Of a stretch of DNA of 64,000 nt, positions 1,513-45,522 are shown piece after piece. The translations under genes were made by a program, and so were the position numbers. The notes beneath the pieces are model-generated. The model did not search any database. It was given only the letters and a program-made list of their open reading frames with translations, and was not told the DNA's origin. Every line of letters begins with the position of its first letter. Position 1 is the first letter of the stretch. Origin of the DNA: Leptonemataceae bacterium (GTDB lineage Bacteria; Spirochaetota; Leptospiria; Leptospirales; Leptonemataceae); contig OZ245742.1 of assembly GCA_965227295.1 (NCBI GenBank), positions 5,568,001-5,632,000 of the forward strand. Reading direction: 5' to 3'.

Positions 1513-1591
1513 CCCACTGCTCGTAATTCCAATCATTTAGACTCCTCGCAGCGATTCTGTGCCAGGGTCCCGCTCACACAGGGACAGAATC

Positions 1592-20614: not shown

Positions 20615-22581
<1,967 letters not shown>

Positions 22582-22712
22582 TTCGTCGCAACGGTCGCCC
22601 ACTCCGGCCCGCGATAGAGCGGGCCTCCGGAGTGGGTCAGCGGCGGGTGGGGTTGGATGGTTCGAATCGGCCCTGTCTTACCGTTTGTGTTTTTCAGATT
22701 CGTTTCTTAAAC

Positions 22713-29751: not shown

Positions 29752-29837
29752 GCTGACAGATGCCGGACTCGCCGGTGCTTGCGAGCCTTTCTCCGGCACG
29801 CGTAACTTTTTTTGCCGACCGGCCGCGGAGCGCCAAA

Positions 29838-29873
29838 ATTTAAGTGGACGCTTATGTAAGTGTATGCTTAAAT
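29838..29873. promoter_or_regulatory. Tandem palindromic operator (candidate ArsR site)
   Basis: TAAG-N6-CTTA twice (29841-29854 and 29857-29870) within ATTTAAG...CTTAAAT, directly upstream of the arsR-like start. Confidence 0.6.
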
Positions 29874-29881
29874 ATATTTTG

Positions 29882-30217
29882 ATGGATGTCGCCCTGAAAG
29901 CCGTCGCTGAACCGAGGCGCCGGGAAATCTTACGCCTGGTCCAGGCCGAAGAACTGAGCGCCGGAGAGATCTGTGATTTCTTCGACGTCAGCGGCCCGGC
30001 CATCTCCCAGCATCTCGCCGTCCTGCTGGACGCGGAGTTGGTGGAGGTCCGACGGGAGGGTACGCGACGTCTGTATCGTGCCAATATGACCCGCATCCGA
30101 CAATTACGTGCCTTCTGGGAAGAGTTCTGGGACGTCAGCCTGCTACGACTGAAGCTCGAAGCGGAAAAGAAGCACAGGGCGGATCAAAACAAGAAGAAGA
30201 AAAAGAGGAAACGCTGA
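29882..30217 (+). CDS. ArsR/SmtB-family transcriptional regulator
   Basis: LKAVAEPRRREIL..SAGEI..PAISQHLAVL.DAELV.VRREG.RRLY. Confidence 0.9.
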   Translation: MDVALKAVAEPRRREILRLVQAEELSAGEICDFFDVSGPAISQHLAVLLDAELVEVRREGTRRLYRANMTRIRQLRAFWEEFWDVSLLRLKLEAEKKHRADQNKKKKKRKR

Positions 30218-30218
30218 T

Positions 30219-30674
30219 ATGAGTACTACAGGTTATGATCAAGCGGTCGTAAAGAAGACCGTCGAAATTCAGGCGCCGCCGGAGACGGTGTTCGAGTTCT
30301 TTCGTAAGCCGGAGTTGATGACGAAATGGATGGGCATCGAAGCCGAACTCGATCCGCAACCCGGCGGCATCTACCGGGTGCAAATGGCGACTAAAGACCG
30401 CGACGTCGCCCTCGGCAAGTATCTGGAAGTGGATCCGCCGCGACGGATCGTATTTTCCTTCGGCTGGGTCGGCGGAGAATTCGTGCCGCCGGAATCCACC
30501 CGGGTGGAGATCGATCTGGAGCCCTGCGAAAAGGGCACGCGCTTAACTCTCTCTCACTTTCTGTTACACGAAGCGCGACGCGACGCTCACAACAAGGGCT
30601 GGGACTATCACATGGACCGACTGGTTACCGCGGCCGAGGGTCGTGATCCGGGGCCGGACACGCTGGGTGGCTGA
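30219..30674 (+). CDS. SRPBCC / AHSA1-like domain protein
   Basis: IQAPPETVFEFF..PE.MTKW, DPQPGG.YR, PPRRIVFSFGW, HNKGWDYHMDRL. Confidence 0.88.
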   Translation: MSTTGYDQAVVKKTVEIQAPPETVFEFFRKPELMTKWMGIEAELDPQPGGIYRVQMATKDRDVALGKYLEVDPPRRIVFSFGWVGGEFVPPESTRVEIDLEPCEKGTRLTLSHFLLHEARRDAHNKGWDYHMDRLVTAAEGRDPGPDTLGG

Positions 30675-30734
30675 GTTCCCGAAACTCAACCACTCTTAGA
30701 TTTAGAGAAGGATAACTTACCACAGGAGACTCAA

Positions 30735-31373
30735 ATGAAACCGAAACTACACGCTCTGCCGGGCTCGCCGAACAGCCGGAAGGTCCTTGCACTCGTCAGA
30801 TACCTGGATCTCGAACCGGAACTGAACCTCATCGATCCTTCCACCGGCATTCACAAACAACCGGACTTTCTTGCGAAGAACCCCAACGGCCTCTTACCGC
30901 TGCTTGAGGTCGGCGACTTCTGCCTCTGGGAGTCCAACGCGATTCTCCAGTACATCGACGACACACACGGCAACCGACTGGGATCCACCGACGCCCGGGA
31001 ACGCGCCGAAATCTCGCGCTGGCAGTTCTGGGAGACGGCCCACTGGGGACCACAAACGGGTATCCTGACCTGGGAAAAACACTTGAAGCAGCTCTTTACC
31101 GGCGCACCGGCCGACCCCGCCCGAGTCGAAGAAGGCATCGAGGCGTATCATAAGATCGCTAAGGTCCTGGAATCGCATCTTAAGAACCGCGACTATGTCG
31201 CCTGCGATCGCCTGACCATCGCCGACTTTTCCGTGGCCGCGCCGCTGACTTATGCGAAAGAATCGGAACATCCCCTGGACGAGTACAAAAACATCGCCGC
31301 CTGGTTGGAGCGCGTGAATACCGTGCCGGCCTGGAGCGAAACCGCACCGCAGAAAATGTTTGCGACGGCATAA
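30735..31373 (+). CDS. Glutathione S-transferase family protein
   Basis: SPNSRKV, KNPNG.LP.L, LWESNAILQY, LTIADF; AGGAG RBS. Confidence 0.92.
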   Translation: MKPKLHALPGSPNSRKVLALVRYLDLEPELNLIDPSTGIHKQPDFLAKNPNGLLPLLEVGDFCLWESNAILQYIDDTHGNRLGSTDARERAEISRWQFWETAHWGPQTGILTWEKHLKQLFTGAPADPARVEEGIEAYHKIAKVLESHLKNRDYVACDRLTIADFSVAAPLTYAKESEHPLDEYKNIAAWLERVNTVPAWSETAPQKMFATA

Positions 31374-31430
31374 AACGTTCCCGGCGCAAAGTTCTTTACG
31401 ACCGGCCGGGCATGCGGATGATCGTATCCC

Positions 31431-31606
31431 ATGCGCTTCGGCCGGTCTTTTTATTTCTGCGCCGCCGTCCTTGCGCTGGCCGGCACCGGTCGCCGCGCAA
31501 GCGAAACCGGCGCCTCCCGATCTCGGGCGACGTGTACACCGGCACGCGCCTGCGAATCAACACGGACTACTATGCGTTTCTGATCAGCACGTCGTACTAT
31601 CTTTAA
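31431..31606 (+). pseudogene. Possible collapsed remnant of an exported / outer-membrane protein gene
   Basis: Signal-peptide-like MRFGRSFYFCAAVLALAG joined, out of frame, to a beta-strand-like C-terminus GTRLRINTDYYAFLISTSYYL*. Confidence 0.35.
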
Positions 31607-32922
31607 CCCCGCTCAATCAGCATCGACCCACCGACGCCGTCACCGGCGCACGAAGTAATCAGCACGCGCTGCGCGTTTGTATCTTCGGCGAGGTCCATGA
31701 CGGCGTTGATCACCAACCGCGCGCCGGTGGCTCCGAAGGGATGGCCGGCGGCAATCGAAGAACCGTTCGGGTTGATCTTCTTCGCGTCGAAGCGCGACTC
31801 CCAATCGAAGCCGGTCTCCTGGCGAATCTCCTCGAGCGCTCCGACGGCCGTGGCGGCAAAGGCTTCGTGAATTTCGATGTAATCGAGATCCTCGAAATTC
31901 AGGCCCAGCTCTTCCATGAGCGGCAGGGCCGAGCGTGATTGGCCGAGGCCCATGAGTTCCGGCGCGACACCGACCATCTTCCAGCCCCGCAACACGCCGG
32001 CAATACTCAGACCCAGCTCTTCGGCCTTCGCACGTCTCATCATTAAGAAACCGCCGGCGCCGTCGGAACGCGCGCTGCTGTTGAAGATGGACACGGTGGG
32101 ACCGTGGCTTTGCTCGAGAAACTTGCCGTACTGCGATTGGAAGTCTGCGAACTTCATGCCGGCGTTATCGAAGAGCAACATCGCGCGACCCATGCGATCG
32201 GGGTTTTCGATGAGGCCCTTGCGCAACTCGATGGCTTCGTCGACGACGAGCGGCTCATCGTCTTTACGATCCACGGCCATGACGTAATCTTTGTAGCGCC
32301 CTTCCTTGTGCGCATCGCTCATACGTTTGAAGCTTTCGTAAGCGACTTTATCGGTGGTCTCGCGTTTCAGCGCGAACTTCTGCGCCAGGATCTCCGCGGT
32401 CACGGCCATGCCCACGCTCACGTCCCGATCGCCCAGGCCGTCTTCCAGGCTGTCACGAATCTCCACGCCCTCCGGAAGATTGTCCGGCAACACCTTCGCG
32501 AGCTTCTCGACGGAGTTGGATTTCCCACTGGTGCGCGCGTTTTTTACAATGAAGGGAATGTGCGTCTGCGACTCCTGGCCGATCACCAGAAAGACGTCGC
32601 CTTCGCCGAGCGCAATGCGCCGCGCGGCCTCGGCCGTCGCTTCCAGCGCCGAAACGCAGTTGTTGGAGGCGATCACGGCGGTGGCCTCGTGGGGCAGGCC
32701 CATGCGTTCGCTGATCACCCGCGCCGGATTCAAATCTTGAGGCAGGGCCTCACCGACTACCACGCCGTCGATCTTGCTTTTGTCGAGCCCGGCCTTTTTT
32801 AACACGGCTTCGCCGACCTTTTGCCCGAGTTCCACGGACGTGAATTCCGCGAGCCCTTTGCCGATCTGCGCGAACGGCGTGCGCTGCGGCGCTACGATTA
32901 CAATGTCTTCTGTGAGTTTCAT
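31603..32922 (-). CDS. Thiolase (acetyl-CoA C-acyltransferase), HEAF-type
   Basis: RTPF, NNCVSA nucleophile Cys, IEIHEAFA, GHPFGATG, SCAGDGVG. Confidence 0.92.
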   Translation of the reverse strand: MKLTEDIVIVAPQRTPFAQIGKGLAEFTSVELGQKVGEAVLKKAGLDKSKIDGVVVGEALPQDLNPARVISERMGLPHEATAVIASNNCVSALEATAEAARRIALGEGDVFLVIGQESQTHIPFIVKNARTSGKSNSVEKLAKVLPDNLPEGVEIRDSLEDGLGDRDVSVGMAVTAEILAQKFALKRETTDKVAYESFKRMSDAHKEGRYKDYVMAVDRKDDEPLVVDEAIELRKGLIENPDRMGRAMLLFDNAGMKFADFQSQYGKFLEQSHGPTVSIFNSSARSDGAGGFLMMRRAKAEELGLSIAGVLRGWKMVGVAPELMGLGQSRSALPLMEELGLNFEDLDYIEIHEAFAATAVGALEEIRQETGFDWESRFDAKKINPNGSSIAAGHPFGATGARLVINAVMDLAEDTNAQRVLITSCAGDGVGGSMLIERG

Positions 32923-33037
32923 AACTTTTCCTTATGCCGGCACCAGCCGGTGCGTGCATATGCACGTATTTTTGAGACACTACAGAGTGTGTAGAGTTAC
33001 AGGGAAAATGCAGGGAAATTTGGGGCGGGAGTTATTT

Positions 33038-33145
33038 GGGGGGGAGCTCCGCTCCCCCTGGCTGCGAAGCGAATCGCCTGCGGCGACCGCGTCCGGGCTC
33101 GCGCTACGCGCGACCGGGCCACCCTCCGGGCAGCCCTGCCCGGCC
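33038..33145. repeat. GC-rich multi-hairpin REP-like element
   Basis: Consecutive short palindromes GGGGGAGC-tcc-GCTCCCCC, TCGCC-tgc-GGCGA, TCGCGC-tac-GCGCGA, CCGGGCAG-cc-CTGCCCGG. Confidence 0.55.
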
Positions 33146-33242
33146 GCTTTCACTTCTCCGCCACCCCCTCGGTTTGCAGAAAGTATTCCGGCAGAGAATT
33201 GTAAAGCGTTGACTGGTTCTGTTAATTTTCGTATTTCCGGTT

Positions 33243-35279
33243 ATGCGTTTCGGTTTCGCGATTCTTTTCTGCGCGTTCACGGCCTGCGGCGCGCCGGAGT
33301 TCGGGGACATCGAGTCGGTGGCTTATCTAAGAGACGGTAACCGATCGTTAACGTTTGAAGAAGTCCGCGAGCTGGAATTTACGAAGTCGGAGACGCCTTC
33401 ACCGACGTTCGGATATACGGATGACGTGATCTGGCTGCGGGTGAAGCTGCGAGACGGACTGGAGATCGGAGACGATTATTATCTGAACATTGCCTATCCG
33501 CATCTGGACGACATTCGATTATTTCAGTGGGACCTCAGCAGATGGCAGGTCAAGAGCACGGGGGACCAGTTATCTTTTGCGACACGGGAAATCGACAATG
33601 CAAACTTTTATCTACGGCTGATTGCCCCTTCGAATAAGCCCATATATGTGCGTGTCGAAAGTAGCGGTCCGAAAATCGTGCCTCTATCACTTCAGTCCGG
33701 TAGTGAGATTCCCGGGCAGGCCATGCGACGCTCCATGATCCTTGGTGCGGTTTTCGGCCTGCTTGCCATCATTGCCCTGTACAATCTGACTCTCTATATT
33801 TCGGTGAGAGATCCGAATTTCCTTTACTACGCCCTCTACGTTTCCCTGCTAACGGGCGCCTTCTTTTGCTTCGAACGGTTTGATTACCAGTTTATCTGGC
33901 GGGAACCGTCCACGATTTCAAATAGATCTTTCGCGATACTCGGGACGGCCGCATACTTTTGGGCTACACGTTTCGCCCGCCGATATCTCGACACACAAAA
34001 CAATTCACCGCTATTTCATCACGTACTCGGTGGCCTTTCTTACGTTCACCTCGCAGGTATTGTCCTTTTTTTATTCTACGAAAACTACGGGCTCCTCGCG
34101 CGTACGGTGAACGCATTCATACTCATTACGCTGCTTGTGATTATTACCGTATCAGTTCTTCTGACCGTGCGCGGTTCACGATCGGCCCGCTTCTTCATAG
34201 TAGCCTGGCCGATATTTATTGCAGGCAGCATATTGGGACTTTTTCGCTTCGAAGGAAGTGTCCCGGACACCTTTTTCACTCAATACGGGGTCTATATCGG
34301 CGCGATCATCGAAGTCGTCCTCATCTCTTTCGGCCTGGGCGATCGCATCAACCAAATGCGTCTGCAAACCGAACGCGCCCAGCGTGAAAGCCTCGAACTT
34401 CAACAAACGCTAACTCAATCTTACGCGCGCTTTGTACCAGAACAACTGCTCACCAGACTCGGCAAATCCACCATCCTCGACGTCCGCCTCGGCGACGCCG
34501 TGGAACGCGAGATGACGATCCTGTTCTCCGACATCCGTTCCTTTACGGTAATCTCCGAAACCATGACACCGCGCGAGAACTTCGAGTTCATCAATTCATT
34601 TCTACAGAACACAGGCCCCGTTATCCGCGAACAGGGCGGCTACATAGACAAATACATCGGCGACAGCATCATGGCGCTCTTCCCGGAATCACCAGAGCAT
34701 GCCCTGCTGTCCGCCGTGCAAATGCGACGATTGCTGAGCGCTTACAATGTACGCCGCAAGCACAATGGCTTCCGCGAAATCCAGATCGGCATCGGTATTA
34801 ATACCGGGCCTGTTATGCTCGGCATCGTCGGGGAGGAACAACGCCTCGAAGGAACAGTAATTGCCGATGCGGTAAATCTCGCCGCGCGGCTGGAAGGCCT
34901 TTGCAAACGCTACGGCGCAACAATCCTCATAAGTGAACAGACTCTCTTTCGGCTCCCTGAACCCGAAAATTACCACTATCGCATCCTCGACTATGTTCGC
35001 GTCAAAGGCAAGTCAGACACTGTCACCGTCGTGGAAGTCTTCGACGGCGATCCTCCTGAACTCTTCGGGCAAAAGAACCAGTCTCGCGTTAGCTTCGAAC
35101 GTGCCGTAACGCTCTTCGGCACGGGAGACTTTACTTCCGCGCGCGCACGTTTCGAAGATGTCCTGCGCAATTCTCCCGACGACCCCGCCGCGGCAATCTA
35201 CGCCGCCCGCGCCGCCGAATACGAACGCCACGGACCGCCGCCGAACTGGCAGGGCATCACGGACCTGGACCAGAAATAG
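33243..35279 (+). CDS. 7TMR-DISM sensor class III adenylate/guanylate cyclase
   Basis: Extracellular DISMED2-like region (FGYT..VIWLR, YPHLDDI), 7 TM helices, ILFSDIRSFT, IDKYIGDSIMALF, ADAVNLAARLEG, VRVKGK, TPR-like tail. Confidence 0.92.
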   Translation: MRFGFAILFCAFTACGAPEFGDIESVAYLRDGNRSLTFEEVRELEFTKSETPSPTFGYTDDVIWLRVKLRDGLEIGDDYYLNIAYPHLDDIRLFQWDLSRWQVKSTGDQLSFATREIDNANFYLRLIAPSNKPIYVRVESSGPKIVPLSLQSGSEIPGQAMRRSMILGAVFGLLAIIALYNLTLYISVRDPNFLYYALYVSLLTGAFFCFERFDYQFIWREPSTISNRSFAILGTAAYFWATRFARRYLDTQNNSPLFHHVLGGLSYVHLAGIVLFLFYENYGLLARTVNAFILITLLVIITVSVLLTVRGSRSARFFIVAWPIFIAGSILGLFRFEGSVPDTFFTQYGVYIGAIIEVVLISFGLGDRINQMRLQTERAQRESLELQQTLTQSYARFVPEQLLTRLGKSTILDVRLGDAVEREMTILFSDIRSFTVISETMTPRENFEFINSFLQNTGPVIREQGGYIDKYIGDSIMALFPESPEHALLSAVQMRRLLSAYNVRRKHNGFREIQIGIGINTGPVMLGIVGEEQRLEGTVIADAVNLAARLEGLCKRYGATILISEQTLFRLPEPENYHYRILDYVRVKGKSDTVTVVEVFDGDPPELFGQKNQSRVSFERAVTLFGTGDFTSARARFEDVLRNSPDDPAAAIYAARAAEYERHGPPPNWQGITDLDQK

Positions 35280-35360
35280 GGCCGCCGCCGAACTCGTGCA
35301 CAATCTTACGGAAACGCCCGGAAATCCTCCGCCCCACCCCGGGCGCGGCTGCCTTCATCG

Positions 35361-35389
35361 TTGACGCATGTCCCGGACGCGAATACTAA
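35361..35389 (+). promoter_or_regulatory. Candidate sigma70 promoter for the TIR operon
   Basis: TTGACG-N17-TACTAA, 65 bp upstream of the TIR ATG. Confidence 0.45.
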
Positions 35390-35453
35390 ACTTCACTAAG
35401 TTTCTCCGCGCGCACATTACGTAACAATACTCACGGCGCGCCGCATTTTCTGC

Positions 35454-35894
35454 ATGCCGGACAAGACGCATCTCATCTTCCTCAGCTACGCCCGGGCGGA
35501 CGCGGAAAGCGCCGAACGCCTGCACGCGTTCTTCCTGAGCAATCGTTTCGCCGACAGGAACGTGCGGCCCTGGCTCGACAGGCACGATCTCTTACCCGGT
35601 GAACGCTGGGACCAGGCCATCCGCACGGCGCTCCAGGCCGCGGCGTTCGTCGTCATTATCGTCTCGCAGGCGTCCGTCGATAAACGCGGCTATTTTCGCA
35701 GAGAAGTGCGCGCGGCCCTGGATCGCGGCGATGAGTTCCTGGACCGGGACATCTTCCTGATTCCGGTACGCATCGACGATGTGCCGCTGCCGGACGACCT
35801 CGCTGACTTCCAGTGCGTCGACCTGCGTCGCGACGACTGGCAGAACCGCCTGACCGCCGCCGTCAGAGCCGGCCTGGATCGCCGTAACTTATAA
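35454..35894 (+). CDS. Stand-alone TIR-domain protein
   Basis: IFLSYARAD, PWLD..DLLPGERW, FVVIIVSQAS, GYFRREV (putative catalytic Glu), FLIPVRID. Confidence 0.9.
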   Translation: MPDKTHLIFLSYARADAESAERLHAFFLSNRFADRNVRPWLDRHDLLPGERWDQAIRTALQAAAFVVIIVSQASVDKRGYFRREVRAALDRGDEFLDRDIFLIPVRIDDVPLPDDLADFQCVDLRRDDWQNRLTAAVRAGLDRRNL

Positions 35895-35906
35895 TGTTTT
35901 GCACCT

Positions 35907-38900
35907 ATGCCCGAGACTGCTGACAACCCGCGCGTGTATCTGTGTTATTCCCGGGAAGATTTTCCGGAAGTGGAACGCTGGTATCACGCCCTGGAATCCC
36001 AGGGATTTCAACCGTGGATGGAAGACCTCGACCTCGTTCCCGGCGAAGTTCGTAAGAGCGTCGTCGAGGACGCGGTGGCCACGGCGGACTTTTTTATCGT
36101 TTGCGTGAGTCGGCGCACTGGCGGCGAACGCGGACGGGTACAGCAAGAAATCAGCCAGGCCTTAGATACACTTCAATCATACTTAGAGAACGACATCTAC
36201 CTGATCCCGGCTTTGCTCGAAGAATGCGCCTTGCCCGAACGCCTGAAGGAGTTTCATCCGGTACGATTGTACCGTCCCGACGGCTTCGAGCGTTTGCTGC
36301 ATGCCTTGCGGACCGGGGTGGAACGGCGGAGGCGGGAACACCGGCAAGAACCGATGCTCGCGCCGCCTCCATCGAACGATCAAGATTCGGCCCCGCGCAT
36401 ACCGAGCGAAACCGATCTGTACCGGCTCCTCGGCCTGGCCTATCGCGGTTGGACCGAGGATCGTCCGGCAAGGACCGCGGCATGTATCCAGCAGGCGTTG
36501 TTGCTGCTCTTTCGTTTATGCTATCGCGATCACCACGGCGATGCGGCGGCGGCCTCGGTGGAAGGCGACGCCTTACTGGAATTCATTCGCACCCGCTTCG
36601 CGACGGAGGACCCGCGGTTACTGCGATTGGTGCAAAACATCGGCCGCGCGTGCCGGATGGCCGCCCACGATCTCGACGAAAACTCGGGCCGCAAACACGC
36701 GGGCAATCTTTTGACCGCGTTCACGGCGGCCTTCTTCTTCGTGCATCGCCGCATCCGCGGGCGTACGGACCCGGATCGCGAACAGCTCTTCCGTGCGTTC
36801 AGCCCGCCCGAGACGGACACTCCGGAAGACCACTTCGTTTTTCCGAAAGCTAAGTTTCATTTACCGACCGAGTCCCCGGATCGTTCCGGCGAGCCGGCGG
36901 AACGCCGAACCGTCGCCCTGCATCAGGCGGCCATCGACAATCCCGCCGCGCAGCAACTCAGTCCGCATCAGAAAGTACTCGTCAACGTCGCCTGCTTTCA
37001 GATGCGCAGCGGCCTGGAGATTCCGTTCATTCAAAGTGAGGTGCGCAACGAGGACGTGGAGATCGAATTTCTGACCGTACTCGCGAGTGTAACTGTCGTT
37101 GCTGCGAAGTTAGCGACTGCTCACACGGTCGTCTACATCGGCCCCGAACTTTCGGCCGATGCCTGGGGCCGCCGTTACCGGCTGACCACCAACGGCCGGG
37201 ATCAACTCGACGTCTTTGAAATCGCTCAGGAAGATCTTCCCGACGATCAATCCACGGCGCCGGAGAGCCGGGAGATCCTGCATCACGACATCGACGGCGA
37301 AACGTTTGCGAACTATCGTCACACGTGCAAAGAACGCACGGGTTTTTCCCAGAGCAACATCGTCCTGCTGAACGACGATCACGATCTGCTCCAGGCCCTG
37401 AGCTATCCCTTCGACGTCTGGCGTTTGTTCCTGCACCCGCGGCAACTTCAGGTTGTCGAACACCCGGCGCGTTTCCTGTTCGTGCAGGGCGGACCAGGCA
37501 CCGGTAAGACCGTGGTGCTCGCGCATCGTATGATGCGGATCGTAGAACGTCGAGAGCACGAGGGTGATGCGAACTTTAAGATTATCTTTCTATCATTTAC
37601 GGCTTCCGTTGCCGAAAACATGCGCCGCATGCTCGATAAACTCGGCGTGAACCTGGATCGCATCGTCATCGCGGACGTGCAGGCTTTCTTCGTGCGCAAG
37701 TCTCGCAAGGAACTCGTGCTCAACTGGGACCGCAGGCGCCGACAAATCATTCTGCACGAGGAGCTGCGATTTCCGGGGAAAAATGCGCCCGGGCAAGGAC
37801 GCCGCTACGTCGACTACATCGTTACGGACGTTTTCTTCGACGAGTTTCAGGACTTCCCCACGAAAGACGAGGACAACTACATCATCAAAATGATCCGCGC
37901 CGTAAAAGCGAGTCGCGCCACGCTCACCTGCACGTACGACGAACACCAGAGCATATATCACACCGAAACGGACTTAAAGTACTGGGACCGCCTGCTTGCG
38001 AACATCGAACACGTGCGTCTCGATTACTGTTATCGCATGGCGCGAGAAATATCCGAGATATCGAGCAAACATCGGCGCATCATGCTCGCTCACGCGCGGG
38101 ACATGCTCGCCCTCTCCGGCGGCGATCCGCCCGGCTACAGCGAACAACCGGCGCAACTCGCCTACGCCTTCACCGGCGGCACCGTGAGTCTCGTGCCCAC
38201 GGTGGGTCTGCGACAAATCACCGTGGCGAAGCGCATCGTAAGTACACTTCGCGAAGAGTTAGCGCGCGACACGGACAACCGCGCTCCGCGCCCCGTGCTG
38301 ACCGCGGGCACGTCGGACGTGGTGATCATTTTTTTTAATCCGGCCGATTACGGTCGCCAGTACGCCGGGAAGCTCAGCGAAGGCTGGTACGACAATCTCA
38401 AACGCGAGCTGAACGTGGAGATCTTCAATCCCTTCGCGGTCAAGGGCCTGGAGTTTCGTGCCGGGGTGGTCCTGTTTCCGCAGTACTGCTTCATGAAGTA
38501 CCGCCAGTACCTGCGCGACGGTGTGGATCTGCGCCGCCTCGACGAATTCTGCGCCGCGATCCTCGACTACCACGAACGGCACGTCCACGCGATTACGGAC
38601 GCGGGTTTTCGCAAGAGTACGGTGGATTACTTTCACGATTTGTTGTTTTTCTTAACTTCCCGGCCGTCACTCTCCCAGCGCCGCGAAGGCGAGGGTCTGC
38701 GCGAACTCACCGGGGTCTTACAGAACGCCGGCATCAGCGGCAACGATCTCGGCGTCGTCCACGAATTGTACCAACGCTATCTGTCGCATGAACTCAAGTC
38801 CTTGCTGGTGCGTTACGATCTTCCTTCCCGCGAATCGCCGACTGCCCCGCCGTTCGACCGGCCCATGTATCAAAAGCTGCGCGCACTCATCGCCGCGGAA

Positions 38901-39104
38901 ACCGCGAAAGTCCGCCGGCATACGCGGCTGCGACGTTCGAAACTGATCCACGGCGAGATCGATCGTTCGCTGCGGGACTTAAATGAATTTTATGTAGCAT
39001 TAACGCGCTTTCGCGAGCGAACGTTCCTGGTCTATGACCAAGAGTACGATCTGGCGCCCGTGATGCCCGGGGCCGAGGTGCTGGATGAGACGGAATTGCT
39101 GTAG
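35907..39104 (+). CDS. TIR-domain / UvrD-like superfamily 1 helicase fusion protein
   Basis: N-terminal TIR (VYLCYSRED, PWM..DLVPG, GRVQQEI, YLIPALLEEC). Helicase motifs FLHPRQ, GGPGTGKT, LSFT, DEFQD, YDEHQSIY, L..CYR, KGLEF, YVALTR. Confidence 0.88.
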   Translation: MPETADNPRVYLCYSREDFPEVERWYHALESQGFQPWMEDLDLVPGEVRKSVVEDAVATADFFIVCVSRRTGGERGRVQQEISQALDTLQSYLENDIYLIPALLEECALPERLKEFHPVRLYRPDGFERLLHALRTGVERRRREHRQEPMLAPPPSNDQDSAPRIPSETDLYRLLGLAYRGWTEDRPARTAACIQQALLLLFRLCYRDHHGDAAAASVEGDALLEFIRTRFATEDPRLLRLVQNIGRACRMAAHDLDENSGRKHAGNLLTAFTAAFFFVHRRIRGRTDPDREQLFRAFSPPETDTPEDHFVFPKAKFHLPTESPDRSGEPAERRTVALHQAAIDNPAAQQLSPHQKVLVNVACFQMRSGLEIPFIQSEVRNEDVEIEFLTVLASVTVVAAKLATAHTVVYIGPELSADAWGRRYRLTTNGRDQLDVFEIAQEDLPDDQSTAPESREILHHDIDGETFANYRHTCKERTGFSQSNIVLLNDDHDLLQALSYPFDVWRLFLHPRQLQVVEHPARFLFVQGGPGTGKTVVLAHRMMRIVERREHEGDANFKIIFLSFTASVAENMRRMLDKLGVNLDRIVIADVQAFFVRKSRKELVLNWDRRRRQIILHEELRFPGKNAPGQGRRYVDYIVTDVFFDEFQDFPTKDEDNYIIKMIRAVKASRATLTCTYDEHQSIYHTETDLKYWDRLLANIEHVRLDYCYRMAREISEISSKHRRIMLAHARDMLALSGGDPPGYSEQPAQLAYAFTGGTVSLVPTVGLRQITVAKRIVSTLREELARDTDNRAPRPVLTAGTSDVVIIFFNPADYGRQYAGKLSEGWYDNLKRELNVEIFNPFAVKGLEFRAGVVLFPQYCFMKYRQYLRDGVDLRRLDEFCAAILDYHERHVHAITDAGFRKSTVDYFHDLLFFLTSRPSLSQRREGEGLRELTGVLQNAGISGNDLGVVHELYQRYLSHELKSLLVRYDLPSRESPTAPPFDRPMYQKLRALIAAETAKVRRHTRLRRSKLIHGEIDRSLRDLNEFYVALTRFRERTFLVYDQEYDLAPVMPGAEVLDETELL

Positions 39105-39209
39105 ATTGTCGACGGGCGCCGGCCTTCGTCGGTCAGAGCATAGACCGTCACCGCGGCGGCCCAGGATCTCAAGCGCAACGGCCAACTCTAAATTGGCATT
39201 TCCAATTTA

Positions 39210-39238
39210 TTGCTTGTTTTTTCAAAGCAAGATATTAT
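39210..39238 (+). promoter_or_regulatory. Candidate sigma70 promoter with overlapping inverted repeat
   Basis: TTGCTT-N17-TATTAT; TTGCTT-N9-AAGCAA palindrome overlaps the -35 box; GGAGGA RBS follows. Confidence 0.55.
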
Positions 39239-39258
39239 ACCGGGCCTCCGGAGGAATC

Positions 39259-39762
39259 ATGCCAACATCCGAAACAACGACGACGCTTCTACAGGACAGC
39301 GAGGTCCTCTCCGCCCTGCCGGTGGAGCACCTGTGCGATTTCGACATCCGCTTTGAGCCGGTCCAACGCATCGACACCGCAGCGGGAACCAGGCTCAATT
39401 ACATCATTCGGGAGGGCATCGTGCGCGGGCCGCGCATCCAGGGTGAATTTCTCCCCGGCGGTGGGGACTGGCTCATCACCGGCACGGACGGAGTCTCACA
39501 CCTGGACGTACGCGCCACGCTGCGTACGAAGGACGACGCACTCATCTACCTCACAAATCGCGGCCGGGTCTCCATGTCCACGTCCATGCGCCGCCGCTAC
39601 TTAATGGGACAGCAACTGCCTTATTCCGCCATGTACGCGCGCTCGCATCCGCAATTCGAAACAGACGCCCCGGAATACGCTTTTCTGAACGCGGCGGTAT
39701 GCATCGCGTTCAACGAGGTCAGCCTGGACCGGGTGATCTATCGCATCTACATCGTGCAGTAG
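39259..39762 (+). CDS. DUF3237-family protein
   Basis: G.VRGPRIQG..LPGGGDW....DG..HLDVR.TL.T.D.A.IY....G, PQFET..PEY.FLN. Confidence 0.85.
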   Translation: MPTSETTTTLLQDSEVLSALPVEHLCDFDIRFEPVQRIDTAAGTRLNYIIREGIVRGPRIQGEFLPGGGDWLITGTDGVSHLDVRATLRTKDDALIYLTNRGRVSMSTSMRRRYLMGQQLPYSAMYARSHPQFETDAPEYAFLNAAVCIAFNEVSLDRVIYRIYIVQ

Positions 39763-39854
39763 GCCTATTCTCCATGGTGCATACCACACCTGAACATGAT
39801 GCAACGCTCCTGAAAAATACTGGCACCCTGTCGCATGTTCGCGGACAACAACAC

Positions 39855-41036
39855 ATGCAGGAAGTACTGCGACACGGCATTCTCTACGGCGGCATCTTTC
39901 TGTTCCTGGGCGGCTGGGGTCATCTCCTGCGCCCGGGCAAACTCATCACCAATCGCATGCTCGCTCTACTGAGCATCGCGGTAGCCGTCCAGTTTCTGTA
40001 CCTGTACTTCCTCATGCGGGAATGGCACTTCGAACCCGGCTACTGGAACTACGCTTACCTGCCGTTTGTTTTCGTCTGCGGCCCGGGCATGTACATCCTG
40101 TTTCGCGCCACGGTCGAAGACGGCTACCGACCGTCACGCCATGTATGGTTGTTCGCTCCCGCCGTGGTACTCGTCCCGTTTCTGCCGCTGAGCTACGACC
40201 TGGCCCCGCACTGGTACGAATCGGGACCCATCGACTACTATTTCGCCGGCGCGACCACGCCCCTCGACATCGTCACGCTCTTCGGATTCTACGCCAATCT
40301 TTTCTGTTACGTGGTGATCTTCGTGCACGCCGGCCCGGTCTTTCGCTGGCGCTCACTCTCCCAGGAACCGGCCGCGCGCATCTTGCTCGGTATCCTGGTC
40401 GGCAACTCCCTGCTCATGGGCGCGCTGGGCTGCGCTCATCTTCTGCGGCGCGCGGACGGCGTGATCTACGTGGCCTTCGGTACCTCGGTATTCGCGGCGG
40501 TAATCTCCGTGTTTTCTCAGAGCGCTCCGTACCTCTTTCAGGAACTGGGCATCGCCATCCGCAAGGCCTACAAGAACTCGCGCCTGGCCGGCGTGAACGT
40601 GGCGGCCCTGGAACAAGAACTGCGCCGCTTAATGGAAGAAGACAAACTCTTTCTGCACGAAGACTTGAGTCTGCAGGCTCTCGCCCACGAACTGGACGTA
40701 AAGCCCTACCAACTCTCCGAATTCTTAAACGCGCACCTCGAACAAAACTTCTCTCGTTTCGTGAACGGCTACCGCGTGGCAGAAGCCGCGCGCATGCTCC
40801 TCGAAGAAGAAGCCGCCAGCATCCTCTCGATCGCCTTTCGCGTGGGCTTCAATTCAAAGGCGACGTTTAACCAGGCCTTCAAAACCATCCACGGTCTATC
40901 GCCGCGCGAGTATCTCAAAAAAGAACGCGCTCACAAGAAGAATCGCCGACGGCGTACGAAGATCCAGGCCCTGGGCAAACGCGCCGCCCGCATGGCCGCG
41001 AAGGTCGTGCCCTCGAAACGCCGCAAAAAAGGCTGA
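39855..41036 (+). CDS. Membrane-anchored AraC-family regulator (paralog A)
   Basis: About 6 TM helices; YKNSRL; LFLHEDLSL..LA; NFSRFVNGYRV; VGFNSKATFN. Confidence 0.9.
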   Translation: MQEVLRHGILYGGIFLFLGGWGHLLRPGKLITNRMLALLSIAVAVQFLYLYFLMREWHFEPGYWNYAYLPFVFVCGPGMYILFRATVEDGYRPSRHVWLFAPAVVLVPFLPLSYDLAPHWYESGPIDYYFAGATTPLDIVTLFGFYANLFCYVVIFVHAGPVFRWRSLSQEPAARILLGILVGNSLLMGALGCAHLLRRADGVIYVAFGTSVFAAVISVFSQSAPYLFQELGIAIRKAYKNSRLAGVNVAALEQELRRLMEEDKLFLHEDLSLQALAHELDVKPYQLSEFLNAHLEQNFSRFVNGYRVAEAARMLLEEEAASILSIAFRVGFNSKATFNQAFKTIHGLSPREYLKKERAHKKNRRRRTKIQALGKRAARMAAKVVPSKRRKKG

Positions 41037-41099
41037 GATCCGTACCGCGCGAAAACCGCAGCCCTGAGCTCCCTTTTCGTAAATCCCGCGAGCACGGCG

Positions 41100-42060
41100 G
41101 TGCACGACGTACCGGCCGGCAACGCGGGGCGATCGATCAGCCAGGCCGACATCGAAGCGGCCTTCGAAGCCGAAGACGACGGCAGTTTCACCTGGAATCC
41201 GGGCGTGGTCTTTCAGTCCGCGGACGGAACCACCATCACGGGCAACGTCTTTCAACCGAAGCATGTCGCGCCGGGCGAAACGCTGCCGGCGATCATCTTC
41301 GTAAATTCCTGGGCGGTCAACGAGTTCGAGTACATCGTACCCGCGGCGAAGTTTGCGAAGAAAGGTTACATCGTCTTCAGTTACAGTACGCGCGGCTTCG
41401 GTTTCTCCGGCGGACTCATCAACGTCGCCGGCCCCAAAGACATGCAGGATCTTTCCGCTGCCATCATATCTGAACCAGGGCACCCACGCTACGGCCGAGG
41501 CCGCGGGCATTCTGGGACTGCCTAACTTCATCTGGGACAACGCCAACGACTGGTTCGACTATCATCTCAAAGGCGTCGACACGGGCATCATGCAACGGCC
41601 GGCCGTAACCTTCGAAAAAAAGTTCGCCGACATCGGCGAGCGCGTGAGCTACGCCACCTGGCCGTCACCACAGGTTAGCGAGCGCACCTTTTACCTGAAA
41701 CCGCGCGGTCTGTTCAGCGGCGGCAAACTCCAGGACTCGCCCAACTCCAGCAGCCGTACGTCGCGCATCTACAGCGGTATCGATACGACCGCGAATACCG
41801 GTGTGCCGCTCATTTCGCCGATCCTGGAAGGTCATCTGAACGCGCCGGTGCTCACGCCGCTTTCCACGGTCAGCCGCAACCACGGCGTCGTCTACCAGTC
41901 CGATCTCCTGTGGAACGGCCTTAAGATGCGCGGAAAATCAGTTTACCGTGCACGGGTGGAATCGTCCCGGAAAGAGCTGCACCTGAACGTCTATCTCTAC
42001 GACGTGGACTGGTTCGGCACCGGCAAACTGATCACCCACGGCACCGGCACGATTCCAGCC
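41100..42060 (+). pseudogene. CocE/NonD (peptidase S15-like) hydrolase pseudogene
   Basis: PAIIFVNSW..GYIVFSYSTRGFG.SGG.I.VAGPKD..DLSA, then a frame jump at ~41467 to LNQGTHATAE..WFDYHLKG..YLYDVD..GTGKLITHG. No G-x-S-Y-G nucleophile region; both ends look truncated. Confidence 0.8.
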
Positions 42061-42196
42061 AGCAGGGCACCCTCAAAATCGAAGTTGAATGATCTTACGA
42101 ACGTCCGGGCCTCCCCGCGCGGGAAGCCCGGGAAAACGGCGCAAACGCCGCTAAAAAAACTGGCGCCGTGTCGCATGTCCTCCGACCATCGCATTG

Positions 42197-43282
42197 ATGT
42201 TCGAGGTCGCGCGGCACGGCATTCTTTTCGGCTCCATCTTTCTCTTAATGGCGGGCGGCGGACACCTGCTCCGCCCCGGCAAACTCACAACCAATCGCAT
42301 CCTGACCCTGCTGAGCTGGGACGCTGCGGCCATGCTCCTGCTCATGTACCTGCAAATGAGCGGCGTGCGCTTCGAACCCGGTTTCTGGGACTACCTGTAC
42401 GTGCCGTTGATTTACGTCGGCGGACCGGCCATGTACGTCGTCTTCCGCGCCATGGTGGAAATCGACTACGACCTGCGCCGGGACCTCGGCGTATTCGTGC
42501 TCCCCGTGCTGTTGGTTCCGGCACTGCCTCTGAGCTATGTGATCGCCCCGCACTGGTACGAAACCGGCCCGGTGGAGTACTATCTCGAAGGCAGCGTGAG
42601 TCCGCCGGACATCGCCATCCTTGCCGGACTGATCCTGAACGCGTTCTACTACGTGGCCGCGTATTTCCGCACGCGGGAGATCTTCAGCCTGGAATCGTTG
42701 CGCCGCGATCCGGCGGCGCGCATTCTGCTGAGCATCCTGGTGGGCAGCCTCGTCTTCAACACGGCCATGGCCTACCTGCACGCCACGCGGAACACCGAAG
42801 GCATTGTCGTCACGGCCTTCAGTATTTCCGTCTTCGCGGCTATCACCTTTCTGACGACGCAGACCACGCCGCATCTGTTTCAGGAACTGGGCATCGCCCT
42901 GCGCAAGGCCTACAAGACCACCCGCCTCAGCGGTGTGGACGTGGACAACCTGGAGAAAGATCTGCGTCGGTTAATGGAAGATGACAAACTCTTTCTGAAC
43001 GAAGACTTGAGCGTGAACGACCTGGCCGCGGAGCTGGACATAAAGCCGTACCAGCTTTCGGAGTTCCTGAACGCGCACCTGGAACAAAACTTCGCGCGCT
43101 ACGTAAACGGTTACCGCGTAGAAGAAGCGGCCCGCCTGTTGCTGGAAGATGAGGCCGCATCCATTCTTTCCGTGGCCTTTCGGGTGGGCTTCAACTCCAA
43201 GGCCACGTTCAACCAGGCCTTCAAGGCCGTGAAGGGCCAGTCGCCGCGCGAGTTTCTGAAACAAGAACGCGCCGAATCATGA
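42197..43282 (+). CDS. Membrane-anchored AraC-family regulator (paralog B)
   Basis: Collinear with 39855..41036 (RHGIL.G.IFL..GG.GHLLRPGKL.TNR; near-identical HTH region). Confidence 0.9.
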   Translation: MFEVARHGILFGSIFLLMAGGGHLLRPGKLTTNRILTLLSWDAAAMLLLMYLQMSGVRFEPGFWDYLYVPLIYVGGPAMYVVFRAMVEIDYDLRRDLGVFVLPVLLVPALPLSYVIAPHWYETGPVEYYLEGSVSPPDIAILAGLILNAFYYVAAYFRTREIFSLESLRRDPAARILLSILVGSLVFNTAMAYLHATRNTEGIVVTAFSISVFAAITFLTTQTTPHLFQELGIALRKAYKTTRLSGVDVDNLEKDLRRLMEDDKLFLNEDLSVNDLAAELDIKPYQLSEFLNAHLEQNFARYVNGYRVEEAARLLLEDEAASILSVAFRVGFNSKATFNQAFKAVKGQSPREFLKQERAES

Positions 43283-43311
43283 GGCAGGAGACAGTGTGAC
43301 GATGGCGGTGC

Positions 43312-43926
43312 TCAGTACTGCGCGCCAAACTTCTGCTCCGTGCGAGCTACGGCCGCGGCAAAGTCGTCTTCGGGGAGCAGCTTCGTCTCCACGGGAACGC
43401 CGTCTTCCAGAACACGGAGCACGCGCACGTCGCCGGCGCTCACGCTGTCCACTTCCAGTTCGGCCAGGCTGCCGTCGGCCCGCGGAGTGAAGAATCGGCC
43501 GGGCAGGTCTTTCTTCAGGACGATGTTCCGCACGAGTTCCGCTTCACCGCCGTCACCCTGAAAGATGCGCATTTCCAGGAGTTTGCCGAAGTCGCGGTAC
43601 ACAAAATCCACCCGGGCGCCGTCCACCCGCGCCGTACGCCGGAACTCACCGTTTTCGTCGAAGTCGTTCGCGCTGACCGGGTTCTCGCCGGTCCAGAATT
43701 CGACCGAATTCAGCACGAGCAAATCCGCCAGTATGAAGATCGCCCCGACGATGCCCAGGGGCCAGATGGCGAGGACGAAAAACACGATCCAGCTGACCCA
43801 TTTGTTGCCCAGGCTGCCGATCCATTGAAAGCCCTTTCCCGTCAGGGCAAACGACCCCACACAGCGCGGCAAAGTCGCGTAACCAAGGCAGGCGACCAGG
43901 AGACAGATCAGCAGACGTTTTCCCAT
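43312..43926 (-). CDS. DUF3332-like protein
   Basis: C.GSFALT..F.W....NKWV..IVF...ADLLVLNSVEFWTGENP. Confidence 0.8.
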   Translation of the reverse strand: MGKRLLICLLVACLGYATLPRCVGSFALTGKGFQWIGSLGNKWVSWIVFFVLAIWPLGIVGAIFILADLLVLNSVEFWTGENPVSANDFDENGEFRRTARVDGARVDFVYRDFGKLLEMRIFQGDGGEAELVRNIVLKKDLPGRFFTPRADGSLAELEVDSVSAGDVRVLRVLEDGVPVETKLLPEDDFAAAVARTEQKFGAQY

Positions 43927-44162
43927 CCAGAGAACTCCACGGCGGCATGTTCCGCCTCATTAATATAGAAGAATCGCGTCCGAAGATGTGTCCAGTACGA
44001 TTATGTCGTCTCCCGGATTTGTAAAAAAACCTCCCGTACGGGTAACTTTTTTACAAATTCTACTTGCGCTTCTGTGCGGCGCATAAAAGTATAGTGCAAC
44101 GCACAACAGCAGTGCGGGCGGCTCAGGCCGCAACATAGCACAACTTAAAAGGAAGGCACACA

Positions 44163-44519
44163 ATGAGCGCAATCGAAACCGGAGTACGCAACACCCTCAA
44201 CGCAGGCATCGGCCTGTTCCGCGCGGCGGAAGAGAACCTCGGCAAGCTGGGCGATCAAATCAAGACGGCCCAGGGCAGCCTGGAAACCCTCGACCTCAAC
44301 GCGGAAATTGAGAAAGTGAAAGCTCAAGTCGAAGGCTTCGACTTCAACACGCAAATCACGACCATCCAGAAGCAACTGGAAGACGGTTATGCCGACCTCG
44401 TCAGCAAAGGTGCTGCCGATCAGAGCGAGCTGGTTGTGAATCTGCGCGGCCTCCTCGACCAGGGCATTGCCCAGGTAAAAGAGATTCAGGCCCAGGTAGA
44501 TTCTTACCTGAAAAACTAA
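44163..44519 (+). CDS. Phasin-like coiled-coil protein
   Basis: LNAGIGLF..Y.DLV.KGA.DQSE; AGGAAGG RBS. Confidence 0.65.
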   Translation: MSAIETGVRNTLNAGIGLFRAAEENLGKLGDQIKTAQGSLETLDLNAEIEKVKAQVEGFDFNTQITTIQKQLEDGYADLVSKGAADQSELVVNLRGLLDQGIAQVKEIQAQVDSYLKN

Positions 44520-44549
44520 GTCTTATCCTCCCCGATAAGCGAGTTCATA

Positions 44550-44595
44550 CCGGCGATTGCGCCTCCTTCCGGGGGCGCGGCGCCGGGTAATTTTT
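44550..44595 (+). terminator. Candidate rho-independent terminator
   Basis: CCGGCG..GCGCCTCC-ttcc-GGGGGCGC..CGCCGG stem followed by TAATTTTT. Confidence 0.5.
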
Positions 44596-44631
44596 GTACT
44601 TCCGCAAACCCGCGCCCGTCGGCCTACGAAC

Positions 44632-45522
44632 TGGCTACGGCTTTGCGGGAGTTGTGGATTTTCGTTTTGTTAAGAATGTTGCGTTCGACCCGGACGCCGG
44701 TTGTGCGACTCAGCTACCGGAGCGATTCTTGCGGCGAAGACGCCGTTCCGGTGCGCCTTACCATGCTCCCCGGCATGAACTCCGTTCATCTGCTGGAACC
44801 AGCCGTACCCAAAAAAGTCTTAATGCAAACTGACCGCCACTTACACCACGATTCGGGGCGTCCGCGAGCTGTCCGAGCGTTTCCGGTAATCCAAGAGCTG
44901 CGGTTCGTTGCGTTTGCCGTGAAAAAAAGGGAGTAAGTCGCCAAACTTTGAAGGGGATCATTTGGCTACGGCTGAGCGGGAGTTGTGGAATTTCGTTTTG
45001 CTAACATCGTCCGCATCGACCCGGACGTTGGTTTGTGACTCAGCTATCGCGAACCACTGCAACGTTTCTTGCGATGAAGACGCCGTTCCGGTGCGCCTTA
45101 CCATGCTCCCCGGCATGAACTCCGTTCATCTGCTGGAACCAGCCGTACCCATACAAGGCTTAATGTACACTGGCCGCTACTTACACCACGATCCGGGGCG
45201 TGTTCGAACGACCAAAGGGTTTCCGGTAGTTCAAGAGCTGTGGCTCGCTGCGTTTGCCGTGAAAAAAAGGGAGTAAGTCGCCAAACTTTGAAGGGGATCA
45301 TTTGGCTACGGCTGAGCGGGAGTTGTGGAATTTCGTTTTGCTAACATCGTCCGCATCGACCCGGACGTTGGTTTGTGACTCAGCTATCGCGAACCACTGC
45401 AACGTTTCTTGCGATGAAGACGCCGTTCCGGTGCGCCTTACCACATTCCCCGGCATGACCTCCGTTCATCTGCTGGAACCAGCCGTTCCCGTAAATCCCA
45501 AACCAAACTGACCGCTACTTAC
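44632..45522. repeat. Tandem array of ~2.6 copies of a 331-340 bp unit
   Basis: Units start TGGCTACGGCT at 44632, 44963 and 45303; 44909-45103 is identical to 45249-45443. Confidence 0.95.

Follow-up and report, generated by a model that had tools for sequence, protein, structure and literature searches.

A small TIR protein encoded next to a TIR-UvrD-like helicase in a Leptonemataceae bacterium: a conserved gene pair with a proposed immune-type function

What is the function of two TIR domains that are encoded side by side, one as a free protein and the other fused to a UvrD-like helicase? The question is raised by a gene pair in a 64,000-nucleotide (nt) stretch of DNA from a Leptonemataceae bacterium (Spirochaetota; GenBank assembly GCA_965227295.1, contig OZ245742.1, positions 5,568,001 to 5,632,000), referred to here as the window and numbered from its first letter. 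The first gene (35454-35894, + strand) encodes a small stand-alone TIR protein of 146 amino acids (aa; P0001). The second gene (35907-39104, + strand) encodes a 1065-aa protein in which another TIR domain precedes a superfamily 1 (SF1) helicase (P0002). Both appear in the list of open reading frames (ORFs), on the same strand, and 12 nt separate the stop codon of the first from the ATG of the second. This is the layout described in the original prediction, which was made from the letters of the DNA alone and saw in the pair a candidate undescribed anti-phage system. We find that the feature is real and that the pairing is conserved, and we treat the anti-phage function as a proposal.

We examined the two TIR domains first by profile comparison. 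Pfam TIR_2 (PF13676), which has a curated cut-off of 28 bits, matched residues 8-131 of the small protein (nt 35475-35846, + strand) with 85.2 bits (E = 6.7e-24) and residues 10-131 of the large one (nt 35934-36299, + strand), a divergent N-terminal copy, with 66.9 bits (E = 2.9e-18). The two domains are paralogues and share 34% identity across 134 residues. Glu84 of the small protein (codon at 35703-35705, + strand) and Glu81 of the large one (codon at 36147-36149, + strand) align with the Glu of the S..W...E stretch ('WSKFE') in the TIR-STING structure 6wt6, at the catalytic position of TIR NADases. Glu84 is invariant in all three small-TIR orthologues and in the subclade alignment described below, and Glu81 is invariant among the orthologues of the large protein; the glutamates expected by the original prediction are thus in place in both TIRs. 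Because both score higher than the curated cut-off and carry a Glu at the predicted catalytic position, they can be classed as TIR proteins. A model of the N-terminal half of the large protein (predicted local distance difference test, pLDDT, 69.7) agrees with this assignment, as all 10 of its matches in the PDB at E <= 0.001 were TIR-domain proteins. The best of these were SPARTA TIR-APAZ chains (E = 9.1e-5, root-mean-square deviation (rmsd) 3.9 Å, 138 columns).

The two TIRs differ at positions that may bear on catalysis. An alignment of 26 TIRs that belong to one subclade, of which 3 are small TIRs, 6 are tethered and 17 come from other loci, has in common the motif S..SV.KRG[YFW].Q[KR]E and a Trp after PGE, and aromatic residues are known to matter at these positions of TIR NADases. 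Both aromatics, at E-4 (four positions ahead of the Glu) and at the Trp that follows PGE, are kept in all three small TIRs, and P0001 conforms to the subclade motif KRG[YF]..[KR]E. The tethered TIRs of the core family, in contrast, carry Arg at the E-4 position and lack the Trp after PGE (5/5). In a more distant TIR-helicase (P0025, 37% identity), Gln replaces the Glu at the catalytic position (residues about 60-75), as seen in this single sequence. Because the aromatics are kept in the free TIR and lost in the tethered one, we infer that the free TIR is probably the canonical enzyme, with the tethered one serving mainly in assembly. At other loci, TIRs of the same subclade (16 proteins scanned) are fused to nSTAND1-WD40 (L005), response-regulator receiver domains (L008 and L013), FGE-sulfatase, DUF3298/PdaC, LRR and Lcl_C domains.

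The C-terminal part of the large protein, from residue 453 to 1065 (nt 37263-39101, + strand), comprises a pre-helicase motif and an SF1 ATPase. Pfam UvrD-helicase matched residues 510-579, the N-terminal part only, with 47.2 bits against a cut-off of 23 bits (E = 3.1e-12), and AAA_19 matched residues 519-685. Residues 690-1065 gave no credible Pfam match even at E <= 5, and UvrD_C was not detected. The later SF1 motifs are readable in the sequence: after the Walker A motif GGPGTGKT (residues 528-535, nt 37488-37511, + strand) come DEFQD (645-649), YDEHQSIY (677-684), YCYR (707-710), KGLEF (846-850) and YVALTRFR (1029-1036), segments that we take to be the SF1 motifs and that are invariant across the family alignments. 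Alignments and model together delimit the pre-helicase segment DD..L..AL.YP.D.WRLFLHP.Q (residues 453-512), a compact SF1 core (513-858), a helical insertion between the KGLEF and TRFR motifs (859-1010, nt 38481-38936, + strand) and a C-terminal end that holds the TRFR motif (1011-1065). The full-length AlphaFold model (mean pLDDT 80.0, predicted template modelling score 0.60) was matched by Foldseek to UvrD, PcrA and Rep (E = 6.9e-12 to 2e-9) and to SLFN11/SLFN14 (E = 6.9e-9, rmsd 5-7 Å over about 400 columns, the lowest rmsd among the top matches). The fold search against BFVD returned generic viral SF1 helicases only. Since Pfam, the readable SF1 motifs and the UvrD-like model agree, we consider it confirmed that a free TIR stands beside a TIR fused to a UvrD-like helicase with its SF1 motifs intact, and the motifs and the modelled two-RecA-domain fold place the large protein among the UvrD/Rep-like SF1 proteins as a predicted helicase.

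Between the TIR and the helicase lie two further domains. A disordered linker follows the TIR in the AlphaFold model and leads into an all-helical domain (residues 169-300, nt 36411-36806, + strand), delimited by model and alignments, whose helices (168-297) were modelled with a block pLDDT of about 80-93 and which contains the conserved stretch H-D-L-D-E..RK..GN. A second linker (residues 301-333), disordered in the model and poorly conserved by per-domain identity, is followed by a beta-rich domain (334-440, nt 36906-37226, + strand), recognized by model and hhalign and predicted as a helix and then four strands (pLDDT 82-95). Pfam returned nothing credible at E <= 5 for residues 160-335 or 336-505, ESM Atlas gave no usable match for residues 150-500, and the PDB search with the model of the N-terminal half found nothing credible for the helical or the beta-rich domain. 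The all-helical domain belongs to no known family; a DUF4145/HEPN-like identity was considered and dropped, as it had no support in Pfam at E <= 5.

Comparison of alignments placed the remainder of the protein more precisely. By hhalign, the TIR-helicase family matched a family of short helicases with probability 100 (E = 1.9e-68), residues 330-849 corresponding to columns 5-501 of the short family and the match stopping at residue 849. Residues 330-849 therefore match the whole architecture of a separate UvrD-like helicase family of 540-610 aa. The helical insertion that lies beyond this point shows 43-45% identity to the core-family relatives, compared to 63-64% for the core. The short family (P0027-P0074) is widespread, compact and UvrD-like and has the same pre-helicase motif as the TIR-helicase. 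Its N-terminal domain corresponds to residues 334-440 and contains the conserved motif ..GLR.HK...S.S..DLR......YVDHHD.AY.W. Weak Pfam matches of this domain to HigB-like and ParE-like families (2/32 members each) make a RelE/ParE-like domain a lead only. Against solved structures, the short-family profile matched UvrD (E = 1.8e-25), helicase IV/HelD, PcrA and Rep; it also matched Gabija GajB over the whole length (E = 4.3e-17), ranked below UvrD, helicase IV, PcrA, Rep and HelD. PADLOC has no model covering the short family beyond partial GajB and NERD+UvrD matches, and ESM Atlas placed one member (P0031) with generic UvrD clusters and with one unnamed 1076-aa cluster, which is a lead.

How widely is the pair distributed, and does it stay together? 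A word-based search of 5.8 billion clusters with the large protein gave 23 matches, including four full-length relatives (P0003-P0006, 47-48% identity) and one partial (P0007). With residues 150-1065 as the query, an exhaustive HMMER search of 1.84 billion representatives found 936 proteins at E <= 0.001 and four at E <= 1e-30, namely the query, P0006, the TIR-helicase P0025 and a 910-aa protein without a TIR (P0026). Next in rank came an 868-aa protein without a TIR (P0029) and then short helicases. Both TIR-less proteins retain the helical and beta-rich domains ahead of the helicase; in the short sister family, only the beta-rich domain precedes it. The helicase clade is thus modular, with an N-terminal TIR, a different domain or none, and alternative N-terminal modules are common in conflict systems. 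A pattern-based scan of 185,579 species genomes returned 21 loci, two of them full-length (L001 and L002, both from metagenome-assembled genomes, the latter of the Leptospirales) and 19 with a TIR match only. The TIR-helicase family is very rare and absent from most of the order, and therefore fits an accessory rather than a housekeeping gene.

Conservation of the gene pair was named as a check by the original prediction. The small TIR gene lies directly upstream of the TIR-helicase gene in all three readable genomes (window, L001 and L002), as in a conserved multigene unit. The small-TIR orthologues are 52% (L001) and 51% (L002) identical to P0001. By hidden Markov model, a second TIR gene of the subclade stands in the flanks of 3/3 helicase loci vs 0/19 other loci, some of which are on short contigs. 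A word-based search with the small TIR recovered only itself and one 81%-identical protein, on a 2.3-kb contig, among 221 candidates; as it missed the L001 and L002 orthologues, its result carries little weight. The ratio of nonsynonymous to synonymous substitution rates (dN/dS) between L001 and L002 was 0.08 for the gene of the small TIR and 0.10 for that of the TIR-helicase, with 0.10 and 0.15 for neighbouring genes; these values are approximate because dS, at 0.9-1.6, is near saturation. They indicate that both genes are under purifying selection.

We next asked whether the pair belongs to a system that already has a name. PADLOC-DB v2.0.0 gave partial domain matches only, with GajB and RTasHel models on residues 509-595 of the large protein and Argonaute-associated TIR models on the TIRs, and NCBIfam r20 gave nothing near its cut-offs; across Pfam, PADLOC and NCBIfam, no model covers the whole TIR-helicase architecture. 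A literature search, with most subscription journals outside its scope, found no description of a TIR-UvrD-like helicase fusion with a free TIR partner. The combination is not described in the portions available to us of PMC13069673, PMC10952713, PMC7159879 and bioRxiv 10.1101/2024.12.27.630466, and the supplement tables of PMC13069673, which cover E. coli genomes only, have 0 occurrences of PF13676, TIR_2 and UvrD. The single occurrence of 'TIR-Hel' in a SPARTA preprint is unrelated to the pair. In keeping with the original prediction, the pair appears to match no named system, and neither a ThsA-like nor a GajA-like partner was found by Pfam or PADLOC among the scanned neighbours. The design of a sensor NTPase joined to a TIR is itself already known.

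Several known systems resemble the pair in part. SPARTA is a nucleic-acid-triggered NADase, in which a nucleic-acid sensor is coupled to a TIR and the NADase is switched on by assembly, a parallel that we propose for the pair; in PADLOC the small TIR matches Argonaute-associated TIR models best (E = 2.5e-13, over their TIR part only), and TIR-APAZ chains are, as noted above, the best Foldseek matches of the tethered TIR. However, the pair has no Argonaute or APAZ, its presumed sensor is an SF1 ATPase and it has an extra free TIR. The Aga_TIR models match only at profile positions 5-125 of 430, and there is no Argonaute among the neighbours. Gabija GajB is likewise a compact UvrD-like SF1 ATPase, and the PADLOC GajB model matched residues 509-595 of 1065 (E = 6.6e-11). 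However, this match spans only about 85 residues, the large protein has three domains more (TIR, helical and beta-rich) as well as a helical insertion of 150 residues, and no GajA (an ATPase with a TOPRIM/OLD nuclease) lies beside the pair. Avs and TIR-NLR proteins share the plan of an NTPase sensor with an N-terminal TIR effector, and the subclade relatives fused to nSTAND1-WD40 fit that plan; the NTPase of the pair, in contrast, is an SF1 helicase and not a STAND protein. NACHT scored 16.4 bits against a cut-off of 26.7 on P0002, and NB-ARC 13.4 against 23.5 on the L001 orthologue, in both cases through the P-loop only. The group III Schlafen proteins SLFN11 and SLFN14, whose helicase-like domain reads nucleic acid, also combine an N-terminal effector with a C-terminal SF1 helicase-like domain. 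Pfam SLFN-g3_helicase (cut-off 24) scored 29.4 bits on the L001 orthologue, 26.2 on that of L002 and 22.6 on P0002. However, the effector of the pair is a TIR rather than a Schlafen-core RNase, the pair is bacterial, and the likeness is known only at the level of the SF1 fold. Finally, a Pycsar reading of the cyclase gene just upstream, whose class III cyclase domain matches the PADLOC PycC models (E = 4.9e-20), was rejected, as the gene encodes a membrane receptor of the 7TMR-DISM type with TPR and neither L001 nor L002 has it; Pfam found no domain binding cyclic nucleotide monophosphates (cNMP) in either TIR protein.

The occurrence of two different TIR proteins encoded together recalls Thoeris with two ThsB proteins (ThsB1/ThsB2) and Shaseng. 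As far as the available text of PMC12578639 goes, ThsB1 recruits and activates ThsB2. In Shaseng, according to the part of bioRxiv 10.1101/2024.12.27.630466 available to us, only the SasA dead mutation abolished immunity, and the assistance of one TIR by another is only suggested. This likeness raises the alternative of a Thoeris-like signalling pair, in which one or both TIRs would make a cyclic ADP-ribose-type or ADP-ribose-derived signal for an effector that is unlinked or contained in the large protein. The Glu present in both TIRs would suit such a role, and the two domains of uncharacterised function in the large protein could bind a ligand. However, the pair has no ThsA, SLATT or caspase effector and carries one of its TIRs on a helicase; at none of the three loci is it adjoined by a SLOG, Macro, SIR2, caspase or transmembrane effector, and no ThsA-type domain (SIR2 or transmembrane with SLOG/Macro) occurs among the neighbours in the window, L001 or L002. 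The TIR profiles point the same way, as Pfam ThsB_TIR reached 18.4 bits against a cut-off of 21.2, NCBIfam ThcB4 24.4 against 220, and PADLOC ThsB1 E = 9e-5. We therefore regard a Thoeris-like pair as improbable.

The explanation that we favour, tentatively and with a confidence that stops a little short of an even call, is that a nucleic-acid-gated ATPase unites its own divergent TIR with the free catalytic TIR to consume NAD+, which would make the pair a two-gene, lineage-restricted immune-type module. It starts from what was observed, namely the domain make-up, the conserved pairing, the purifying selection, the UvrD-like fold, both glutamates and the divergence of the tethered TIR; from there the trigger, the TIR-TIR contact, the NAD+ turnover and any anti-phage role would follow a course of this kind. 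The large protein would serve as sensor and scaffold, its SF1 ATPase and its helical and beta-rich domains engaging a nucleic-acid cue such as single-stranded DNA, DNA ends or a replication intermediate of an invader. An ATP-dependent change or oligomerisation would then join the tethered divergent TIR with the free TIR protein, the latter supplying the catalytic pocket and the former acting mainly as a nucleating partner. TIR catalysis needs oligomerisation, according to the available part of bioRxiv 10.1101/2023.09.23.559129. For the recruitment of one TIR by another, ThsB1/ThsB2 is a precedent and Shaseng a suggested one. The assembled TIRs would cleave NAD+, and either its depletion or an ADP-ribose-derived product would stop the growth of the infected cell. 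A bolder version, which we think unlikely, sees the pair as a heteromeric TIR enzyme gated by an SF1 helicase, with the non-canonical tethered TIR as a template that switches on the canonical one once the ATPase encounters nucleic acid of an invader. The pair would then be a bacterial counterpart of the Schlafen design of effector plus SF1 helicase, vertically fixed at a single chromosomal site in a Leptospirales-like lineage, which is unusual for an immune module, and with the helicase clade as a sensor chassis carrying a TIR, a RelE/ParE-like module or none.

The genomic setting weighs against an immune function. The defence-island context that the original prediction looked for was not borne out, and the usual genomic hallmarks of defence are absent. 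PADLOC left 37 of the 38 other window proteins scanned without a match at E <= 1e-8, the exception being an Lhr-type helicase; Pfam found no integrase or transposase among the scanned neighbours of the pair, and the tRNA scan no tRNA gene in the 64-kb window. A tblastn search of 72,556 plasmids yielded 33 matching records, none of which (0/33) covered at least 80% of the protein, and there was no match in 50,697 phage records. Furthermore, the pair is not patchy among relatives. The window and L001 share a gene order with groEL on one side of the pair and DUF3332, a GT2 glycosyltransferase and purK on the other, and because the pair stands at the same macro-syntenic place in the window, L001 and L002, these observations point to vertical inheritance at one chromosomal place. 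Identity between the window and L001 is 52% for the small TIR and 48% for the TIR-helicase; for the flanks it is 82% for a short ORF before groEL, 87% for groEL, 41% for DUF3332 and 75% for the GT2 gene, and purK is 58% identical between the window and L002. There is no sign of an arms race, since the pair, at 47-52% identity, has diverged to an extent also seen among the flanking orthologues (41-87%). Its immediate neighbour genes vary between genomes, and the pair is the sole constant element of a variable stretch. Of the defence reading, then, the conserved pair, its purifying selection, the missing match to a named system and the modular helicase clade stand, and the defence island, mobile DNA and plasmid or phage copies do not.

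These same observations are what would be expected of the main rival, a lineage-specific helicase of nucleic-acid metabolism or regulation with no immune role. It would work on DNA or RNA of the host, for instance during repair, transcription-coupled processes or RNA turnover, with the TIRs as protein-protein adaptors or NAD-linked regulators. Such a host helicase would account for vertical inheritance at a chromosomal place that is syntenic across three related genomes, for purifying selection that is ordinary and similar to that of neighbours, and for the lack of defence or mobile genes nearby and of plasmid or phage copies. A tethered TIR without the conserved aromatics, and without the Glu in P0025, is as expected of a scaffold, and the subclade TIRs fused to response-regulator receiver domains would also be consistent with regulation. 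However, nearly all other genomes lack the family, among them many sequenced from this order; the catalytic-type motif of the free TIR is intact, and the helicase clade swaps its N-terminal modules. The fusion partners of subclade TIRs also include STAND-WD40, LRR and further modules of a sensor type that is typical of conflict systems. On balance we think a host role of this kind unlikely.

The compactness of the locus suggests a further alternative, a toxin-antitoxin-like pair in which a NAD+-consuming free TIR is held by the TIR of the large ATPase and freed when the ATPase is perturbed. The tight operon with its 12-nt gap, the paralogy of the two TIRs and the weakly RelE/ParE-like N-terminal domain of the sister helicase family would fit, and helicases are recruited to the DarTG and ietAS toxin-antitoxin defence systems according to the available part of PMC13069673. 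However, the locus is stable on the chromosome rather than on mobile DNA, and in practice this alternative overlaps with the nucleic-acid-gated module that we prefer; as a separate explanation it is very unlikely.

We also examined how the pair might be expressed. The original prediction assigned it a candidate promoter of its own, and this candidate is weak. The 174-nt spacer upstream (35280-35453) contains the block CCTTCATCGTTGACG (35352-35389, + strand), with a -35-like TTGACG (35361-35366, + strand) and, after a 17-nt spacer, a poor -10-like TACTAA (35384-35389, + strand). The core of this block, C(T)TTCATC(G)TTGAC, is found again ahead of the small TIR gene in L001 and L002, and we roughly estimate at about 0.02 the chance that the window and the L001/L002 lineage would share such an 11-mer. 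However, a scan for the sigma-70 consensus called no site in the spacer, and across 33000-40000 it found 3 sites vs 2.7 expected. A loose sigma-54 pattern was absent from all three upstream regions (window, L001 and L002). An own promoter of the pair is plausible on the strength of the conserved TTGAC block.

The gene that precedes this spacer in the window encodes the 7TMR-DISM receptor mentioned above, and a 7TMR-DISM gene adjoins the pair in 3/3 loci (window 33243-35279, + strand; L001 13763-16936, - strand; L002 13855-17034, - strand). This raises the possibility that the pair is the output module of a neighbouring receptor pathway. However, the receptors are not orthologous: their sensor parts are 27-28% identical, and their outputs, sides and strands differ, the one in the window being a cyclase with TPR upstream of the pair and those in L001 and L002 convergent sigma-54 activators. 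The upstream regions hold no loose sigma-54 pattern and the TIR proteins no cNMP-binding domain, and we consider an output module of this kind highly improbable. The adjacency may be a coincidence or a remnant of an old linkage.

The remaining features of the region are described here for completeness. Near the pair, the window encodes the adenylate/guanylate cyclase receptor, a DUF3237 protein, three AraC-type regulators, a thiolase and a glutathione S-transferase; further out lie genes for a ZIP transporter, FKBP, Lhr, groEL, glycosyltransferases, purK, gcvT and thrS. The organism is an uncultured relative of metagenome-assembled genomes labelled Leptospirales; its ThrRS shares 71% identity with the best named match, from a Leptospiraceae metagenome-assembled genome. 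In L001 and L002 the neighbours of the pair are a GDSL lipase and the sigma-54 activator. The DUF3237 ORF (39085-39762, + strand) as listed shares its first 20 nt with the end of the TIR-helicase gene and has no counterpart at this place in L001 or L002; its true start may be further downstream, because the Pfam domain begins at residue 80. The three AraC-family regulators (28747-30096, - strand; 39699-41036, + strand; 42194-43282, + strand) lie within 15 kb around the pair and have long N-terminal regions without a Pfam family. Rfam gave 0 matches on 30000-45000. The Lhr-type helicase (13858-18498, - strand, 1546 aa) has DEAD, DEAD_assoc and WH_Lhr domains and matches the helicase models of DpdJ, BrxH and SngC; it stands alone, without partners of the DpdJ, BrxH or SngC systems among the genes scanned. 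Over groEL (20926-22581, + strand) lies an antisense ORF (20809-22602, - strand, 597 aa, no Pfam match), which we take to be a spurious product of G+C-rich DNA, as the + strand ORF is 87% identical to the L001 Cpn60. The window also encodes a 2203-aa giant with SpvB, FG-GAP and RHS-repeat domains that is like an Rhs-type polymorphic toxin (1559-8170, + strand) and an Ada-like fusion of an AraC-type helix-turn-helix with a 6-O-methylguanine DNA methyltransferase domain (52063-52926, + strand).

The plasmid search drew attention to a different arrangement. On plasmids of E. coli, Microvirga and two cyanobacteria (L022-L025; NZ_CP026578.2, NZ_CP069359.1, NC_019690.1 and NZ_CP060823.1), a DEAD/DEAH helicase gene of more than 6 kb is directly followed by a gene for a UvrD-like helicase of about 700-730 aa, with toxin-antitoxin genes, ImmA/IrrE, DUF3883 or an N-6 DNA methylase nearby. 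This looks like a defence-type pair. The plasmid matches H1, H6, H10 and H11 are UvrD-like helicases of this size that follow such DEAD/DEAH genes; they are distant relatives (31-36% identity across about 110-150 residues) and were set aside as uninformative about the TIR pair.

Known activators of TIR enzymes are STAND NTPases, Argonautes, cyclic nucleotides and capsid-binding TIRs, and shuffling of TIR domains with NTPases is common. If the nucleic-acid-gated module proposed here is correct, an SF1 helicase switch, with work split between a tethered divergent TIR and a free canonical one, would add a further route of TIR activation, and the pair, with its two genes, would make a simple model for the formation of composite TIR active sites. 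A housekeeping role of the helicase would instead make it a rare case of bacterial TIR domains used outside conflict. On the immune-type reading, the pair would show that immune-type modules can be vertically inherited chromosomal genes outside islands, of a kind that island-based pipelines miss.

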